Source: a phage. Taken from it: 35,984 nucleotides of DNA. A program made the translations under genes and the position numbers. The stretch lies in sequence record PX516787.1. One strand, 5' to 3'. This document shows positions 10,573 to 21,428 of the stretch, in pieces (position 1 is the stretch's first letter; each line of letters begins with the position of its first letter). The notes under the pieces are model-generated. The model was given only the letters and a program-made list of their open reading frames with translations, did not search any database and was not told the origin of the DNA.

Positions 10573-11605
10573 CGACGAAGATACCGTGAATGAAGTAGTT
10601 TTGTTGAACGACAAGGCTACTTTGACGACCCGTCGTTTACGTGACTCTGGCGAAATGATTGCAGAATGCACCATCGCTCGTACTGGCATCATGCTGTATA
10701 AAGCAAAAGAACTTGGTGAAATCGCAAAACATCTGGACCCAGAATCTATTTGCCGTGTTCGTACCAAGCCGGAAGTATTATTTGACGAAGCAACCATTGA
10801 AGGTTGTCGCTCAATTCCGGTTACTATCGGCCATCCGAAAAATGATGTTAACATCAAGAACAACAAAGAACTCCAGAAAGGGTTCATCGAAGGGCGTCCA
10901 GTTGCAGACGGTTCTTTCTTGGCTGCATCAATCGTTTTGAATGACGAGCAAGCTATTCGATTAGTTGATTCTGGTGTTGACCAAATCTCCTTGGGCCATA
11001 ATGCTGAACTGGCTGTATCAGAAGATGATGAAGCCGACTTCGATAAAGTTCGCATTATTCCTAATCATGCTGCAATTGTTGTTCGTGGTCGCGCTCAGAC
11101 TACGCGCATTGGCGACTCTGGCGAAGAGATTGCCATTGTTGATAAGGCAACCTTTGACGTTGTTGAAGCAGAGCGTGATGCAGCGCTTGACAAGATTAGT
11201 GTCCTTGAACAGAAACTTGCTGATGCAGAAACTGCACGACTATCCGATGAAGCTATTCAGGCTGAGGTAGACAAACGTGTAGTTGCTCGTACAGCATTGC
11301 TTGTTGATGTGGCCCGTCTTGGCGACGAGTTCTCCAACCTCGATTTCTCCGGCAAGACCGATGCAGAAATTAAGTTGGCTGTAGTTAATAAATTGCATGA
11401 CAAGGATTTCAGCGATAAGAGCGAAGACTATATCTCCGCCCGTTTCGATGCAGCTCTTGAAGATTGCGATTCCATTACTTTGGGAGATGCCCTGAATCAG
11501 TCTATGCAATTCTCTGCTAAGAAAGATTCAGAAGCTCGTAAACCTAAAGTTTCTATTTCCGAAGAAGCTAACAAACGTCGTTTAGAACGCTTCAACTCTT
11601 TATAA
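10541..11605 (+). CDS. putative prohead protease / scaffolding protein
   Basis: Lies between the portal and capsid genes. The C-terminal half is acidic and helical (AERDAALDKISVLEQKLADAETARL...), as expected for a scaffold. The listed ATG at 10367 overlaps the portal by about 200 nt; in-frame GTG 10541, GTG 10586 or ATG 10655 are more likely. Start is uncertain. Confidence 0.45.
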   Translation: MKQSQNLVQLNDEDTVNEVVLLNDKATLTTRRLRDSGEMIAECTIARTGIMLYKAKELGEIAKHLDPESICRVRTKPEVLFDEATIEGCRSIPVTIGHPKNDVNIKNNKELQKGFIEGRPVADGSFLAASIVLNDEQAIRLVDSGVDQISLGHNAELAVSEDDEADFDKVRIIPNHAAIVVRGRAQTTRIGDSGEEIAIVDKATFDVVEAERDAALDKISVLEQKLADAETARLSDEAIQAEVDKRVVARTALLVDVARLGDEFSNLDFSGKTDAEIKLAVVNKLHDKDFSDKSEDYISARFDAALEDCDSITLGDALNQSMQFSAKKDSEARKPKVSISEEANKRRLERFNSL

Positions 11606-11614
11606 GGTAAGACA

Positions 11615-12088
11615 ATGCCAAAGCAAGATTGGTCTATTAATACTGGTGAAGCATATGCAGGTGAACAATATGGCCTGGCTACCACCAACTCCCAGCGCCT
11701 GACCTACGTTGCCGAAGAAGAAATGGCAAACTTTGGTCTGGCTGTTGTTCAAGGCACAGCTTCTAATCAGGTTAAACCTGGTATTGGGGAAGACGGCACT
11801 GTTCTGGGCATTACTATGCGCCAGATTAACATCGAATCTGCTACTCGTCCTGGCGACGGCACTGTTGCAATTAAAGTTGGCTGGCCTCTGGGTGTTATGC
11901 TGTCTGGCCCAATCATGGTCAAACTGAAAACTGCAATCACCGACAAGAACATTGGTGTATCCACTAAAGGCGAATTTGGTGGTGTTGGTGCTGGGTATAC
12001 TAAAGCAACCAACCTGACTGCCCTGCGTTATCCGGCTTCCGCTGGCGATGTTGTCCCGGTCATGATTAACGTAGTCCCAAAGCCGTAA
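11615..12088 (+). CDS. putative capsid decoration / accessory head protein (short, zero-frame product)
   Basis: 157-aa ORF directly upstream of the major capsid gene, the position lambda gpD occupies. TAAGGTAAG SD-like motif upstream. Ends at TAA 12086-12088. Confidence 0.5.
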   Translation: MPKQDWSINTGEAYAGEQYGLATTNSQRLTYVAEEEMANFGLAVVQGTASNQVKPGIGEDGTVLGITMRQINIESATRPGDGTVAIKVGWPLGVMLSGPIMVKLKTAITDKNIGVSTKGEFGGVGAGYTKATNLTALRYPASAGDVVPVMINVVPKP

Positions 12089-12381
12089 CGCCACCCCCAG
12101 CCCCTACAGTATCTGCTGTAGCTGGAGTTGTAACGGTTGATGCGTCTTCTACTGATGCCACTGTAACTGTAGACAAGCTGTTCAAGTTTGAGAACTCTAC
12201 AGCAACAGATTATAACTTCGCTGTTACACCTCCTGTGACTGGTGTTTCTGTGGCGGCAAACGGCACTGTGACTGTCTTGAATGAGACGACCACAGAGACT
12301 TCTGCTACAATTAAGGCAACAAACAAAACAACCTCTAGCGTAACTGCGACCAAAGAAATTACCATTACGCCGAAGGCTTAA
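11615..12381 (+). CDS. -1 frameshift extension of the decoration-like protein carrying a C-terminal Ig-like (BIG2-like) domain
   Basis: The -1 frame is open from 12070 to the TAA at 12379-12381 and has no start codon of its own. The heptamer C_CCA_AAG (12076-12082) sits in the zero frame just before the stop. The extension translates to AVTPPPAPTVSAVAGVVTVDASSTDATVTVDKLFKFENSTATDYNFAVTPPVTGVSVAANGTVTVLNETTTETSATIKATNKTTSSVTATKEITITPKA, a T/V-rich beta-strand pattern typical of bacterial Ig-like domains. Confidence 0.5.
12076..12082 (+). promoter_or_regulatory. -1 programmed ribosomal frameshift slippery heptamer C_CCA_AAG
   Basis: X_XXY_YYZ pattern in the zero frame, 4 nt before the stop, with a 99-codon open -1 frame downstream. 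Confidence 0.5.
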
Positions 12382-12436
12382 GTTGCAATGGCGCAATTAA
12401 TGGTTGCGCCTCATCAAACAAAACGGATTAATTTAC

Positions 12437-13444
12437 ATGCCTAAGATGATTAAACTGGCGGACGGTTCTGAATTTGAACTGAACGACGCTATCACCCGTA
12501 TTCAGGATTCTGGCACTGTTGTCCTGAATGACGACGATGCAGTATTCTTTCAACGCCAGCTTGAGTTCATTGAAGCTCAAACTTATGACACCCTGTATCC
12601 AGAACTGGAAGCGCGTGCTGCTTTCGGTGTGGACACCACTGGTGGCGCTGGCGTAAACACTCTGACCTACCGTTCCTACAACCATGTAGGTAAAGCTCAG
12701 GTAATTAACGCCCGTGCAACCGACCTGCCGAAGTCCAGCATTTCTGGTAAAGAATACAGCATCCCTGTTAAATCAGTTGGTACTGCATTCGACTACGATA
12801 TTGACGAAGTAGCGTCTGCTGCTGTTACTGGCCTCCCGCTGGAAACTCGTAAAGCGAATGCTGCTATTCGTGGTTACGAGCAGTATGTTAACTCTGCTGC
12901 ATGGTACGGCGATAAAGCTAACGGCTTTGTTGGCTTCTTCGAAAACCCAGACATTACCAAAGCAACTGTTGCTCAGGGTGCTGGTGGTTCTACCAAGTGG
13001 GCCGAGAAGACTCCGACCGAAGTTATTGCCGACCTGACTGCTGCTGTGTCTGCAATGTATGCTTCTACTCTGAAAATTATGCGCCCAGATGAAATCTGGA
13101 TGCCTGTTGAGCATGAGCAGTACATCTTCAACACTGCACGTTCTGAACAGTCTGATAAGACGATTGGTCAGTTCTTCATTGACAACAACCAGTTCATCAA
13201 CTCCCGCGATAAAATCAAGGGTCTGAACGCAATCAAAGGTCACGGCGATTCTGGCTCCGATTGCTTCGTTGTTGTTTGCCGCAATGCAATGGGCAACCGT
13301 ACTTTCCGTCTGCGTGAGCCTCTGCCACTGACCTGGCAACCGGTACAGCTTCATGGTCTGGTTTATGAAGTTCCTGGCCGTGGTCGTTTCGCTGGCTTCC
13401 AAGCGATGTATCCGGCAGCAATCTCCATCAACTCCGGCATCTGA
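12437..13444 (+). CDS. major capsid protein
   Basis: About 335 aa, the size and position expected of an HK97-fold capsid protein, in the head module. The listed ORF starts at TTG 12404; ATG 12437 (MPKMIKLADG...) is preferred. Confidence 0.75.
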   Translation: MPKMIKLADGSEFELNDAITRIQDSGTVVLNDDDAVFFQRQLEFIEAQTYDTLYPELEARAAFGVDTTGGAGVNTLTYRSYNHVGKAQVINARATDLPKSSISGKEYSIPVKSVGTAFDYDIDEVASAAVTGLPLETRKANAAIRGYEQYVNSAAWYGDKANGFVGFFENPDITKATVAQGAGGSTKWAEKTPTEVIADLTAAVSAMYASTLKIMRPDEIWMPVEHEQYIFNTARSEQSDKTIGQFFIDNNQFINSRDKIKGLNAIKGHGDSGSDCFVVVCRNAMGNRTFRLREPLPLTWQPVQLHGLVYEVPGRGRFAGFQAMYPAAISINSGI

Positions 13445-13490: not shown

Positions 13491-13931
13491 ATGCAGATTA
13501 AGAACAACGAATCACGCAACCTTCAATTCTTCTTCTATAAGAAGGGAAAGTCTGGCAAATCTGAGCTGGACTTTGTTCACATTCCTGGTGGCGCAACTGT
13601 AGAAATCGATGACGAAATCTACAAATCTCTTACGGCATCTCTGACGGAAGTTGAAGAACTGCGCGAAGAAGTGGTTCCGCTTGATGACGAGAATATCGGT
13701 GCTTCTGTTAATACTGGTAAAGAAGCTCTTGTCATTAAAGAGTATTACAGCACTGGCAAAACTCGCAAAGTCAACCTGGTTAAAGAAGCAATCAAAGCTG
13801 GTTCTCTTACCATTGTTGAACGTGTGAAAGTTGGTATGCCTGACATTGATGCTATTCTGACTAAGAATGGTATTGATATCAAAGGTATGCCGGAAGACGT
13901 TAAACTGGCACTCTACGATAAGTTGGCGTAA
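13491..13931 (+). CDS. hypothetical head-associated protein
   Basis: 146-aa acidic ORF immediately after the capsid gene. Positional call only. Confidence 0.4.
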   Translation: MQIKNNESRNLQFFFYKKGKSGKSELDFVHIPGGATVEIDDEIYKSLTASLTEVEELREEVVPLDDENIGASVNTGKEALVIKEYYSTGKTRKVNLVKEAIKAGSLTIVERVKVGMPDIDAILTKNGIDIKGMPEDVKLALYDKLA

Positions 13932-17114: not shown

Positions 17115-17129
17115 CATTAAGGTAAGAGC

Positions 17130-17588
17130 ATGGCTTGTGAACTTCGTCAACGCGAGTTACAGGCCGACTCTGGTGATGTAGTCTTGGTTGGTACTCGTCA
17201 ATTGGGTGCCAGCCAAGCTCTTGACCTTCAAGTCGAGCTTGTTCAGAAACTCGGAACTTCAATCTTCCCATTCGTTGAGAATAAATATAACTTTGCAGAC
17301 ATTATTTATTTAATGCAGCAAGGTGGGACGAGTAACGAAGTAACAGAATTAATTAAACGTGTAGTGTGCATGGCAACCATTGATGGTGTCGAAGTTACTC
17401 CACGCACTATGCAAATGAAATACAACGGCAACTTGATGCTTATGCACCATGTGTTTGCATTTGTTTTGGAATCGAACTTCCTTGATTTTTTCAAGCAAGG
17501 GCTCGAACTCAACGAACGCAGACGATTGGAGGCGGTGGAAGCATCCAAGATGGCCGAGCAGAAGAATTCGAGTCCGGAAACGATTTAA
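17130..17588 (+). CDS. tail assembly chaperone (short, zero-frame product)
   Basis: 152 aa, directly upstream of the tape-measure-position gene, and contains a slippery heptamer. Confidence 0.6.
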   Translation: MACELRQRELQADSGDVVLVGTRQLGASQALDLQVELVQKLGTSIFPFVENKYNFADIIYLMQQGGTSNEVTELIKRVVCMATIDGVEVTPRTMQMKYNGNLMLMHHVFAFVLESNFLDFFKQGLELNERRRLEAVEASKMAEQKNSSPETI

Positions 17589-17764
17589 CTGAAAAGTTCC
17601 CGGAAATAAAATACTTCTTGCACCGTCCTGTAATAGAGGACAGTTCACTCTGTTCTCTTAAAGAGTTACAAGATGGGACCTACTCTATTATGGATTTGTT
17701 GACCTTCCACGCAATACTTGATTTGCGTAACGAATTAAAACCTAAAGAAGAAGACAATGGCTAA
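17130..17764 (+). CDS. tail assembly chaperone, -1 frameshift long form (lambda G-T / P2 E+E' analogue)
   Basis: The -1 frame is open from 17486 to the TAA at 17762-17764 and spans the entire apparent 170-nt gap before the next gene. The heptamer T_TTT_TTC sits at 17486-17492 in the zero frame. Confidence 0.6.
17486..17492 (+). promoter_or_regulatory. -1 programmed ribosomal frameshift slippery heptamer T_TTT_TTC
   Basis: Classic X_XXY_YYZ site; the -1 frame has a stop at 17483-17485 and is then open for 93 codons. Confidence 0.6.
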
Positions 17765-20700
17765 TAACATAAAAGATTTGATGAGAATGTCCGAAGCCGA
17801 ATTGATTGGCTTAGGCGCTCAATATGGTCTGTCGTTCAATCCAGGTATGCGCAAACGAGATATGGCACAGCAACTTGAATCAAGTGCTGCATCTGGTTGG
17901 ATGGAAACAAATTCGCAGCTTATGGAAGAAACCCATACAGAAGATGATGGCATCTCTTATGGCACTTCCGACATGATTTCAGATTCAGCCCACATTGCAC
18001 AGATGATTTCTGGCGCTGGGCTGACTGAAACATTCCATGCTGCAATGAACGGTCCAAGTCACCATGTAGAAGCTATCCATGCCTACATGGAGAAATTAGG
18101 TGTATCCGCCGATGATGTGTGGATGCACATGCCCAAAGCAAACCCGAACAAACCGGAAGGTCATTGGGGAATGCTTAATGCGTACATGCGTGATACGCTG
18201 ACAGGTCATCAAGATATAATGCCAGAGCTTCCTGGACATTATTCAGGCGACATTATGGGCGAGTACTCCACAAACCGTGGAGATATTGCCAAGTCGTTCG
18301 GCTATCTTGCCCACATGTATGTTGACCGTGAACAATACGACAACCCAGACCGCTATGCACGAGATGTTTATCGTGTAGCCAAACGTTTAGAATCAGAATT
18401 GCCGCAAAACTTCCGAGAAGTTGCTGCTGTATCTGCAATGAATGTAGGAAATAAGTCGGGGCCAAAACTTTCATACATGGATTCATTGCCTAAACTTGGC
18501 TCTGAATCAATTGTTAGTGGTATCCAACACCCTCGACAGCCACTTAACGCATCTGGTTTACCACTTGGTTCATTTGGCAGCGGTATTAATGCCGAATACT
18601 CATTATCTGCATCCTTATCTGGCTCGCCAGGCTGGTCTGATGTAAGTAGGACTCTGTACCAAGATGTTTCTAGCGTAGTTAAGTCTGCGGCAAAGGTCTA
18701 TTCTGGTGATTCTGAAAGAGGGATGAGTGCACACCGCACTCAATCTTCTGACAGAGATTTGATTCTTGATTCTGCTTCCCGCTATGCAGACATTATAGAT
18801 GTTCGTTCTGGGTATGAGAATCTTAAGAAAGATATTGGCGACGACCCTCGCTACTCTGGTGCATCCATCCGTGGTGTTCTTGAGAATGCTCACCAATATA
18901 ATGAGGCAGAAGTAAGCAAGACATTTGACCCTGCTGAACGCTTAAGAAATACTGAACCTGCCGAACTAAGTCCTTCAACAGAGTTTATTACGCAACTCGA
19001 TTCACCAACGAGTTGGAACTCTGCTCGCGCTCGTCGTGAGAGTATTGCTATATCTAACTTGGACTCTGCTCCACAACCAGCTCCGAAAGAAGGCCCAATC
19101 CATTATCACAACATGGAACAGGGAACTCAGGAATGGTTGGACTTCCGCAAACAATACGACATTACTGGCTCCACTGTTGGTTCGTTTCTTGGTAACAATG
19201 AATACACCCGACCTTGGGCTGCAATGATTGATAAAATTGGCCTACAACGCGGAAAGGGGCCAAGTGAATTTACTAAAAGAATGTTCGAAGCAGGTCATCG
19301 GACGGAAGAAATTGCTCGTAACCGTGTCGCCAAAGAGTTTGGATTCGATATCGAGCAAGCTGGCGCAATAACAAATGACAATTATCCGTCGTTCATGTAT
19401 TCTCCAGATGGCCTTATCGGTGATGACGCGATTTGGGAACACAAGAATCCTGAAAGGGCTAAAAAGTTTTCTAATCTCTCTGCTGGCGAGCATAAGGACT
19501 ATTTCGACCAAATTCAATTTGGCTTGCTTGTATCTGGCCGTAGTCGTGCACTGTTCTCTCAGACAATCAGAGACAAGACGGTATCTGAGTGGATTGAGAA
19601 AGACGAGGGATGGTACGAGCGCAACAAAGATAAGATTGATTCTACTATTGGGCGTCTCAATGCTGGTCGAAAGTTTGTTGAAGATAATCCAGACTTACCT
19701 AATGATGAATTAATCAAGGGTGCTCGTGCTGCAATGACTGGCGATGGCATCTGGAAGGATGTTAAGCAAAGGTCAACTCGTGGATATTCTGCCGCAGCTG
19801 GAACACCTGATGACCCATTCATAGGCAACCGCACTGATGCTGGAATTGGTGAGGCCACGACTTCTGCCGTAGGCTCTGACAGCACGACTGGCAACGACTC
19901 GATGGCAGTATCTGTCAAGAAAGGTATTCTTGCTGCACAGGAAGAAAACAAACTGCGTGGACAAGATGCTGACTTTGGTGGAAATGATGGTCGTGGTGGC
20001 GGTGGTGGCTTCTGGGATACTTTCGATGCCAGCAGTTATGGTATTAGCGGAGGTGGTTCTGGTGGCGGCGGTCGTGGTGGTTGGAGAGTTGGCGGTAGCT
20101 TCTCAGATGACTTCGGTCGTGCTGGTGGGGCATTGGCTGCTGGCGTAGCTGGTGGCAGCATTGGTTCATTATCCAATGGCGCAATGAATGCCCTCATGAT
20201 GACTCCTTGGGGTCGTGTAGCTGGCATGGCTATTGGTGCTGCCCAGATTGGTAATGAAGCTCTGGAAGGTCTGAACGACTTCTACGGCAATTCTTTGGAT
20301 GCTGGTGTTAATAATCCTAACGAATATTCTTCCATGACTCAGGGCATGGAAATGTTGGGACTTAACTCACAACAAGCCAATCGACTCAATCAAACCACAC
20401 ATAGTGCCTATAACACCCTCCTAAATGGCGACCCCAGCGGCGCTGTGAACATCGTTCAGGGAACCCGTGGCCTTATCACAATTGGCGACATTCGTGCGGC
20501 ACAGGGCGACCCTGTGGCCCTAGCGCGGATAATGCGTGAGCGTGGTCAGGAACGGGGTTGGAGTCAGGCCCGTATTGCTGGTGCAATGCAGATGGCTGGT
20601 CTGGACGGTATGGCTCGTGCCTATGACCGCACAGAATACAGCATGGGCGAGGCTGAGGCGAACGTTAAGCGCGGAGCCGACTCAAACTATGCCGAAGGCG

Positions 20701-21428
20701 TTGCACAACTAGGAATCGCGCAGACGGAGCGTGCTGGTGTACTGCCTGGATACGCTGTTCCGCAAGCTGCAATCTCATACGGCAGCACCTTTATTGAGGC
20801 AGGTGGCGATGCCGCTAGAACGATGCGTGTGGCCTCCAACGGTACAGCCGATGCAGCACGTAATGTTTATGACTTTATCGCAGGAGAAGAGTCAGGGAAC
20901 CGTGATTTTAACGCAGATGGTTCGGTAGTTACATCGCCAACTGGTGCTAAAGGTCGTATGCAGGTTCTTGATTCAACTTCTCGTGACCCTGGCTTTGGTG
21001 TTCGTCCTGCCAAAGATAACTCACTTGAAGAACGTGCCCGTGTTGGTCGTGACTATTACGATGCAATGCTTAAGCGATATAATGGTGACGCTGAGAAGGC
21101 TATGGCGGCGTACACAGATGGTGCCGGAACTGTTGATGATGCTATCAACAAACATGGAACCGACTGGCTGAACGCTGTTCCACTACAGGCACAGAACCGT
21201 GTCAAGAAGTACCGCGAATGGGCTTCTCAGGGAGATTCTATTGCAGAAGGTGCAACTGGATTCACCAGAAACGGACTGTCCTATGGTCAGACACAGCCCA
21301 CCATAGTTAACGTTGAAGTCAAAGCTACCGTGAACAACAAACAAGCGTCTGCAACCGTGTCAACTCCGAACGGTCAAACTGTTACCCAAACAATCAACAT
21401 GGGTAATGGTGCAATGGAACGCAGATAA
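17757..21428 (+). CDS. tape-measure-position multidomain protein (1223 aa) with Rho-N-like N-terminus, YqaJ-like nuclease domain, Gly-rich tract and C-terminal lytic transglycosylase domain
   Basis: Lies between the chaperone and baseplate genes. N-terminus DLMRMSEAELIGLGAQYGLSFNPGMRKRDMAQQL resembles the Rho N-terminal helix-hairpin-helix. QGTQEWLDFRKQYDITGS ... SPDGLIGDDAIWEHK (about nt 19100-19470) resembles a YqaJ / lambda-exonuclease PD-(D/E)xK domain. Poly-Gly tract at about 19970-20230. AGEESGNRDF ... GAKGRMQV ... AYTDGAG (about 20860-21180) resembles the SLT lytic transglycosylase motifs. Confidence 0.7.
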   Translation: MANNIKDLMRMSEAELIGLGAQYGLSFNPGMRKRDMAQQLESSAASGWMETNSQLMEETHTEDDGISYGTSDMISDSAHIAQMISGAGLTETFHAAMNGPSHHVEAIHAYMEKLGVSADDVWMHMPKANPNKPEGHWGMLNAYMRDTLTGHQDIMPELPGHYSGDIMGEYSTNRGDIAKSFGYLAHMYVDREQYDNPDRYARDVYRVAKRLESELPQNFREVAAVSAMNVGNKSGPKLSYMDSLPKLGSESIVSGIQHPRQPLNASGLPLGSFGSGINAEYSLSASLSGSPGWSDVSRTLYQDVSSVVKSAAKVYSGDSERGMSAHRTQSSDRDLILDSASRYADIIDVRSGYENLKKDIGDDPRYSGASIRGVLENAHQYNEAEVSKTFDPAERLRNTEPAELSPSTEFITQLDSPTSWNSARARRESIAISNLDSAPQPAPKEGPIHYHNMEQGTQEWLDFRKQYDITGSTVGSFLGNNEYTRPWAAMIDKIGLQRGKGPSEFTKRMFEAGHRTEEIARNRVAKEFGFDIEQAGAITNDNYPSFMYSPDGLIGDDAIWEHKNPERAKKFSNLSAGEHKDYFDQIQFGLLVSGRSRALFSQTIRDKTVSEWIEKDEGWYERNKDKIDSTIGRLNAGRKFVEDNPDLPNDELIKGARAAMTGDGIWKDVKQRSTRGYSAAAGTPDDPFIGNRTDAGIGEATTSAVGSDSTTGNDSMAVSVKKGILAAQEENKLRGQDADFGGNDGRGGGGGFWDTFDASSYGISGGGSGGGGRGGWRVGGSFSDDFGRAGGALAAGVAGGSIGSLSNGAMNALMMTPWGRVAGMAIGAAQIGNEALEGLNDFYGNSLDAGVNNPNEYSSMTQGMEMLGLNSQQANRLNQTTHSAYNTLLNGDPSGAVNIVQGTRGLITIGDIRAAQGDPVALARIMRERGQERGWSQARIAGAMQMAGLDGMARAYDRTEYSMGEAEANVKRGADSNYAEGVAQLGIAQTERAGVLPGYAVPQAAISYGSTFIEAGGDAARTMRVASNGTADAARNVYDFIAGEESGNRDFNADGSVVTSPTGAKGRMQVLDSTSRDPGFGVRPAKDNSLEERARVGRDYYDAMLKRYNGDAEKAMAAYTDGAGTVDDAINKHGTDWLNAVPLQAQNRVKKYREWASQGDSIAEGATGFTRNGLSYGQTQPTIVNVEVKATVNNKQASATVSTPNGQTVTQTINMGNGAMERR

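Follow-up and report, generated by a model that had tools for sequence, protein, structure and literature searches.

The 35,984-nucleotide phage sequence deposited as PX516787.1, referred to below in its full length as the window, comes from a phiEcoM-GJ1-like myovirus that is Carltongylesvirus-like and falls within the Chaseviridae, subfamily Cleopatravirinae. Next to its major capsid gene lies a gene for a capsid cement (decoration) protein. The last codons of this gene carry the heptamer C_CCA_AAG, past which the −1 frame remains open and encodes an immunoglobulin (Ig)-like domain. The subject of this analysis is that arrangement, which most probably reflects programmed −1 ribosomal frameshifting that adds the Ig-like domain to a minor fraction of the cement protein. 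The surrounding region (window positions 11400–12600) matches Shigella phage vB_Shi_2KOFFS at 100% identity and about 45 further genomes of coliphages and Yersinia phages at 84–98%. The features on which the argument depends are as follows.

11615..12088, + strand: capsid cement/decoration gene, zero-frame short form, 157 aa, 16.4 kDa, Phage_cement PF22758
12076..12082, + strand: slippery heptamer C_CCA_AAG, the proposed −1 shift site, in X_XXY_YYZ register with the cement gene
12086..12088, + strand: zero-frame stop codon TAA, one codon (CCG, 3 nt) past the heptamer
12082..12105, + strand: Pro-rich linker AVTPPPAP of the −1 frame, starting at the re-read G of the heptamer
12106..12381, + strand: predicted Ig-like domain of the −1 frame, 91 aa, plus TAA at 12379–12381 (AF2, Foldseek, PHROG, dN/dS)
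12437–13444: major capsid protein gene, an intact 335-aa reading frame, next after the cement gene

The cement gene and the open frame behind it

The 157-residue product of the zero-frame open reading frame (ORF) is a Phage_cement capsid decoration protein. It matches the Pfam family Phage_cement (PF22758; E217 gp24/Pam3 gp6) over residues 4–152 with E = 2.8e-17 and 63.6 bits, where the gathering cut-off is 27 bits, and it also matches PHROG 563, 'virion structural protein'. Searching with its AlphaFold2 (AF2) model, which is of moderate confidence (predicted local distance difference test, pLDDT, 79), Foldseek recovered the cement proteins of Pam3 (8hdt_G, E = 3e-6) and E217 (8frs_f, E = 1.6e-3), and further neighbours among the cement and decoration proteins of T1, HFTV1, BB1, XM1, TW1 and Pa193. 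Direct sequence comparison with PDB chains gave no match, and the correspondence to these structures is one of fold only. The model also resembles the base by which the phi29 head fibre binds the capsid; the C-terminal part of that protein extends away from the capsid. Homologues of the window's cement protein occur in about 109 phage genomes. Gene order agrees with this assignment, with a Pa193_gp24-like scaffold/"head maturation protease" gene upstream and the major capsid gene downstream. In phage 4HA13 the orthologue (69% identical) is among the most abundant proteins of CsCl-purified virions, with 100% coverage by mass spectrometry (PMC9699118), and this protein, AC4HA13_0057, is N-terminally acetylated (Supplementary Table S2, PMC9699118). 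Pa193 gp25 forms trimers at the three-fold and quasi-three-fold axes on the capsid exterior (PMC11456595), and the gp24 passages of the E217 report describe the same placement for E217 gp24-type cement (PMC10329688). By homology, the window's protein would likewise form beta-tulip trimers at three-fold positions outside the capsid.

The cement ORF ends ...GTC CCA AAG CCG TAA, which puts C_CCA_AAG in X_XXY_YYZ register. The −1 frame is open from 12070 to 12381; counted from G12082 it holds 99 sense codons (AVTPPPAPTVSAV...EITITPKA), beginning AVTPPPAPTV, before the TAA at 12379–12381. It has no ATG, and its earliest GTG is codon 52 (12235), so that an ORF lister shows just a 48-residue fragment of the extension starting there. 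An initial annotation, made from the letters of the window, had described the heptamer with its coordinates, the 157-residue ORF and the 99-codon −1 frame, all of which proved correct when the sequence was read again. Translated across the two frames, the long form would comprise 255 residues (26.2 kDa). The extension would release the tryptic peptides AVTPPPAPTVSAVAGVVTVDASSTDATVTVDK, FENSTATDYNFAVTPPVTGVSVAANGTVTVLNETTTETSATIK, TTSSVTATK and EITITPK; the junction peptide first put forward for mass spectrometry (...VVPK/AVTPPP...) is ill suited to the purpose, as trypsin would cut at its K.

Taken from the window alone the case for frameshifting is modest and not decisive, because off-frame open stretches of about 100 codons are common there (several off-frame ORFs of 100–250 residues are listed) and slippery patterns are frequent. 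CCCAAAG occurs three times on the + strand, and of these only the 12076 copy keeps register with its ORF; the copies at 18132 and 23344 are out of register and were ruled out as slip sites. An in-register G_GGA_AAG at 13544–13550, near the start of ORF 13491–13931, was also rejected, as its −1 frame closes after six codons and the match is most likely due to chance. On the minus strand a 122-residue ORF (12028–12396) spans the whole extension; the substitution pattern fits the + strand −1 frame, and for that reason this antisense ORF is taken to be a by-product of coding-strand composition. What carries the case beyond chance is that the motif, the frame and the coding signature are conserved in relatives.

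The extension was modelled with 11 homologues and separately from the cement half. Its AF2 model (pLDDT 94.3; predicted template modelling score, pTM, 0.82) is all-beta with nine strands, and the AVTPPPAP residues stand before the first of these. Against the PDB, Foldseek returned the T5 tail tube protein pb6 (E = 2e-4), the phi29 capsid protein gp8 and then invasin; the top matches are all Ig-like, with a TM score of about 0.6 normalised to the query. The extension matches PHROG 13745, 'Ig domain containing protein' (5e-8). Among the curated Pfam Ig families it had no match, the sole Pfam hit being a sub-threshold one to Rpf1_C, and extensions of other types in related phages match Ig_3/I-set weakly. 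From the predicted fold and the PHROG 13745 family, we are confident in describing the extension as an Ig-like beta-sandwich.

Conservation of the proposed slip site and of the frame behind it

For comparison we drew on GenBank phages, IMG/VR and Logan/ENA assemblies, collected 39 distinct loci, all related by descent, and counted an extension as present where the −1 frame ran for at least 92 codons. Twenty-nine of the 39 keep the extension, and the open −1 frame first noted in the window is in this way conserved in related phages. In every one of the 29 the last few codons of the cement ORF hold a shift motif: 25 have CCCAAAG, one has CCCAAAA, one has GGGAAAA and two have A_AAG only, which makes 27 with an in-register heptamer. 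The motif occurs in none of the 10 loci that have no extension, where the capsid gene follows 15–90 nt further on; these are three Nefertitivirinae and seven metagenomic relatives, one of which is 84% identical to the window protein. The association between motif and extension gives a Fisher p of 1e-7, uncorrected for shared ancestry. The zero-frame stop stands 0, 3 or 6 nt past the motif in 28 loci and 15 nt past it in one distant metagenomic locus, L050 (IMGVR_UViG_3300036796_000019, ~1960–2297), whose cement homologue is 40% identical and whose heptamer is G_GGA_AAA. The L050 extension is 103 residues long, beta-rich and unrelated to the other types. Because this distant locus uses a different heptamer and an unrelated extension, the frameshift strategy may be older than the group considered here or may have arisen more than once.

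Within the alignment of 28 loci each heptamer position is invariant in 26–28 sequences. The base 5′ of CCA is C in 26 of 28, even though the codon to which it belongs encodes V, G, I, A, L or S, and the Pro codon ends in A in all 28, the Lys codon in G in 27. In the same alignment, the third positions of codons slightly further upstream vary among three or four bases. Since synonymous alternatives to CCA and AAG are all but absent while neighbouring third positions vary, the constraint on the heptamer, as judged from these comparisons, acts on nucleotides and not on amino acids.

The reading frame past the heptamer shows the complementary signature. The ratio of nonsynonymous to synonymous substitution rates (dN/dS) in the extension is 0.10–0.30 in the −1 frame and at least 1.0 in both other frames, and variable sites fall on codon positions 1, 2 and 3 in 44, 38 and 93 of 96 cases, respectively. 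The pattern of substitution points to purifying selection on the extension in the −1 frame only. Both this coding signature and the Pro-rich linker start directly past the heptamer; in most lineages a linker of the form xVxPPxAP is kept, with synonymous changes, starting at the first codon past the slip site. A fused cement–Ig query searched against 5.8 billion proteins returned 87 clusters, none of them an in-frame cement–Ig fusion and all cement-only with lengths of 145–177 residues. The extension alone as query returned just 11 short ORF calls of 70–90 residues, whose starts lie at differing alignment positions.

Such calls invite a reading in which no recoding takes place and the extension is a separate small gene after the cement gene, initiated at an internal GTG or TTG, as several GenBank records annotate it. 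Gene callers did produce the 11 short clusters, the records annotate ORFs of 45–142 residues here from various starts ('Ig domain containing protein', 'hypothetical protein'), and the metagenomic locus L028 has an ATG 13 codons into the frame. The annotated starts, however, vary from record to record and are not conserved. The first possible start of the −1 frame is codon 52 in the window, codon 32 in PM1, codon 73 in Aioli and codon 80 in Fifi44, so that initiation in the window would yield half an Ig domain and Aioli and Fifi44 could initiate nowhere earlier; most lineages have no start codon able to yield the whole domain. A separate gene is also difficult to square with purifying selection and a Pro-rich linker that run from the first codon past the heptamer, and it leaves both the nucleotide fixation of the heptamer and its perfect co-occurrence with the extension unexplained. 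We consider independent initiation very improbable as the general explanation of the locus.

The same comparisons bear on the idea that there is no decoding event at all, and that the overlap of frames reflects an indel from sequencing or assembly, what is left of a decaying pseudogene, or slippage by RNA polymerase. Indel errors do occur in this group, as the closest GenBank record has a 1-nt indel that splits its capsid gene: in PV615261 (position 3113, corresponding to window ~13012) two 'major head protein' coding sequences are annotated, and the indel is probably a sequencing error in the record. But the same frame arrangement recurs in 29 distinct loci from isolates and metagenomes, and a dN/dS of 0.1–0.3 excludes a pseudogene. 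Transcriptional slippage is supported by homopolymers far longer than three bases, whereas the runs in CCCAAAG comprise just three identical bases, which makes slippage by the polymerase unlikely. Together, explanations of this kind have a negligible chance of being correct.

Proposed slippage at the heptamer and the fate of the predicted long form

On this evidence we place at about 0.88 the probability that a programmed −1 frameshift at C_CCA_AAG gives a minor cement–Ig long form on the capsid. The central proposal of the initial annotation, that a −1 shift at this heptamer appends an Ig-like domain to a decoration-like head protein, accordingly gains support from the Phage_cement match, the predicted fold, the selection pattern and the comparison of relatives. 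In the mechanism we envisage, most ribosomes would read GTC CCA AAG CCG TAA and release the 157-residue cement protein. A minority would slip back by one nucleotide on C_CCA_AAG, with tRNA-Pro re-pairing from CCA to CCC and tRNA-Lys from AAG to AAA, bypass the stop codon and continue through the Pro-rich linker and the 91-residue Ig-like domain to make the 255-residue, 26-kDa long form. The long form would then co-assemble with the short form, so that each capsid would present sub-stoichiometric, tethered, outward-facing Ig-like domains. We infer both that slippage occurs, at a low rate, and that the long form is present in virions; the analogy with the phi29 head fibre suggests that the C-terminus of the extension points outward. 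The displayed domain might mediate weak binding to surface glycans or other polymers.

The sole conserved neighbour of the heptamer is the closely following zero-frame stop. At so-called shifty stops a nearby stop codon may prolong the ribosomal pause, and by analogy the close zero-frame stop may prolong the pause at the heptamer here. Because no conserved stimulator was found, the ratio of long to short form would be expected to be low and fixed, on the order of 1 percent, which would amount to a handful of Ig domains per capsid. The heptamer itself is favorable for such an event: few others are as shift-prone in E. coli as C_CCA_AAG (PMC5009743; PMC4066793), and a 54% shift was measured on it by Sharma et al. 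in combination with a strong pseudoknot (PMC4066793).

Several observations weigh against this interpretation. In the Sharma et al. reporter, unstimulated heptamers shifted at just 2–10 times the background of about 0.05% (PMC4066793), and the efficiency of frameshifting could thus be low. No upstream Shine-Dalgarno-like motif was found at the slip sites, and minimum free energy folds of the 70 nt past the motif in 21 loci revealed no common downstream structure at 5–9 nt. The 68 nt downstream in the window fold no better than shuffles (z = −1.36), and only the Fifi44/L030 type shows a strong stem, starting about 6 nt past the motif; a stimulatory element is, however, a common but not obligatory criterion for X_XXY_YYZ frameshift sites. 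Myduc (GGCAAAG) and the metagenomic locus L027 (AGTAAAG) have the A_AAG tetramer only and no full heptamer, and the early ATG of L028 makes independent initiation possible in that locus. The locus counts overstate independence, because the loci are phylogenetically related. The domain had initially been likened to the Big_2 type, and while its Ig-like character is upheld by the model and by PHROG 13745, the search against Pfam gave no Big_2 (PF02368) match at E up to 1. Finally, the long form is a predicted species that appears in no virion data, the sole virion proteome found being that of 4HA13, in which spectra were matched to annotated proteins only (PMC9699118).

This last point would also fit a real frameshift whose long form acts transiently, for example as an assembly factor, or elsewhere than on the capsid surface. 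The window offers its own precedent, listed here with a second element discussed below.

17486–17492 (region 17121–17764): second −1 frameshift candidate, T_TTT_TTC, in register with the ORF upstream of 17739–21428
12388–12408: hairpin GGCGCAA-7 nt-TTGCGCC, about 30 nt before the capsid-gene ATG

At T_TTT_TTC 17486 the −1 frame opens exactly at the motif and runs for 92 codons to 17764, overlapping the start of 17739–21428, an ORF of about 1230 codons whose position and size suggest that it is the tape measure gene. By analogy, the 17121–17764 arrangement is a candidate for the usual tail assembly chaperone G/G-T frameshift. The long product of tail-chaperone frameshifting, as in lambda G/G-T, is typically non-structural. 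The N-terminal 156 residues of the long form considered here, in contrast, are a complete cement protein, and for that reason it should occupy cement sites. Its structural neighbours are the surface Ig domains of T5 pb6 and phi29 gp8, and the free swapping of unrelated Ig cassettes, described below, is more readily expected of an accessory surface module than of a specific assembly interaction. In phage structural proteins generally, Ig-like domains are typically found at the virion surface (PMC5009743). A transient or non-surface role for the long form is consequently improbable, and we favor its display on the capsid.

The hairpin at 12388–12408, pointed out in the initial annotation as lying just past the extension stop, is indeed present. 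Its position is conserved across the Cleopatravirinae, with compensatory changes in the stem, but it stands upstream of the capsid gene also in relatives that have no extension, and it was for this reason rejected as a frameshift signal or as belonging to the frameshift unit. A scan for intrinsic terminators does not accept it, and it is followed by no T-run; in the service of the capsid gene it may help to process or stabilize the mRNA, or it may terminate transcription by the phage's own RNA polymerase.

Exchange of Ig-like cassettes and relation to known systems

The extensions behind the slip site fall into at least four groups that have no detectable sequence similarity to one another.

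Group 1: the window type and the PM1/Aioli type
Group 2: the I-set-like type of Orgeat, L036, L027 and L043, with weak links to Myduc and L028
Group 3: the Fifi44 type
Group 4: the L050 type

Two pairs of close relatives show how sharply these cassettes are bounded. Y2 and Orgeat, which belong to one genus, and Aioli and Fifi44 have flanks that are 83–100% identical, and within each pair the Ig types are unrelated. From the slip site to the capsid-gene leader identity is about 32–58% in these pairs (about 32–53% for Y2/Orgeat), and the drop falls exactly between these two landmarks. With exchange so sharply bounded, the slip site acts as the constant left edge of a mobile Ig module, which agrees with the picture of the "promiscuous Ig-like domain" (PMC5009743). 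The cassettes also differ in content. In flopper (L004, 1183–1764) the same −1 frame encodes two tandem Ig-like domains in 194 residues, with PPAPTVSAV as a second linker, and JL1, SA91KD and DE15 each give two matches to the Ig-like domain; the tandem copies in these close relatives are a recent internal duplication. Two metagenomic loci depart further from the window. The −1 extension of L028 (1989–2663) is of another type, runs for 221 codons and ends in an I-set-like domain; in L030 (2309–2905) an additional ORF of 198 residues separates the Ig cassette from the capsid gene.

That in-frame fusions are wholly absent suggests selection against full occupancy of the capsid by Ig domains. A broader proposal, to which we give even odds, is that the slip site is a fixed docking point for a horizontally exchanged display cassette and that in-frame fusions have been selected out. 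An Ig module landing between the heptamer and the capsid-gene leader may then be displayed automatically, at a low dose set by frameshifting, and fusions may be excluded since a trimer with three tethered domains would disturb the cement lattice.

Frameshifting that adds Ig-like domains is of a kind already established, for the T3 10B and Lactobacillus phage A2 capsids and for several tail proteins (Fraser et al., as cited in the review by Atkins et al., PMC5009743). The T3 and A2 systems share with the one proposed here a −1 slip near the end of a virion gene, a dominant short form, a minor Ig-bearing long form and a mobile Ig domain. They differ in that the carrier here is a trimeric cement protein and not a major capsid or tail tube protein, and in that the site here is conserved across a subfamily with at least four sequence-unrelated cassettes behind it. 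T7 10A/10B, cited initially as the classic precedent for Ig display, also has a −1 frameshift at the end of a head gene and a minor extended capsid component, and has been used for low-copy phage display. It is not an apt precedent for the Ig domain itself, however, as its carrier is the major capsid protein and its extension is not Ig-like, unlike those of T3 and A2 (PMC5009743).

Other comparisons concern the slip site and the carrier taken separately. Lambda G/G-T (G_GGA_AAG), a tail assembly chaperone frameshift of which the window has its own example at 17486, shares with the cement gene an X_XXA_AAG heptamer read by a shift-prone tRNA-Lys, and it gives a fixed low ratio of two products with no obvious RNA stimulator. 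The longer lambda product serves as an assembly chaperone and does not stay in the virion, whereas the long form here is predicted to be structural. E217 gp24, Pa193 gp25 and Pam3 gp6 belong to the same Pfam family as the window's cement protein and have the same predicted fold, and they share with it the gene order portal, Pa193_gp24-like scaffold, cement and DUF2184-type capsid protein; in contrast to the two forms proposed here, those cement proteins are described as single products. The Pa193 paper mentions no frameshift (PMC11456595), nor do the gp24 and decoration passages of the E217 paper contain a frameshift or an Ig extension (PMC10329688). T4 Hoc and phi29 gp8.5 are non-essential, outward-facing Ig-like or fibrous capsid modules, comparable to the display proposed here, and the base of gp8.5 has the same fold as the cement protein here with its C-terminal part directed outward. 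These are separate full-length gene products with defined occupancy, made with no recoding.

A search of the literature outside subscription journals for an account of this frameshift in Chaseviridae, in phiEcoM-GJ1-like phages or in cement proteins found none. None of the 20 annotated GenBank/RefSeq records inspected marks a recoding event; they show a gap of about 330 nt or an arbitrary short ORF. One further record deserves comment: GenBank PP952070 is labelled 'Staphylococcus phage Pel53', with Staphylococcus hyicus as host, and shares 89.6% identity with this region of an enterobacterial phage; the host label looks doubtful. What is new in the present system is the trimeric cement carrier, the subfamily-wide conservation of the site and the sharply bounded swapping of cassettes.

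For engineering, the locus would provide a ready-made low-copy display site on a myovirus capsid. Phages of this subfamily are under development as biocontrol agents against E. coli, Erwinia, Pectobacterium and Yersinia, and re-annotation would set right one of their virion components throughout the group. If the slip site does serve as a docking point, the Cleopatravirinae would constitute a natural low-copy phage-display system, in which the identity of the cassette would track the environment or host surface and not phage phylogeny. With a fixed slip motif and swapped cassettes, two domains in some phages and none in close relatives, the locus amounts to a natural experiment on why phages show Ig-like domains sub-stoichiometrically.

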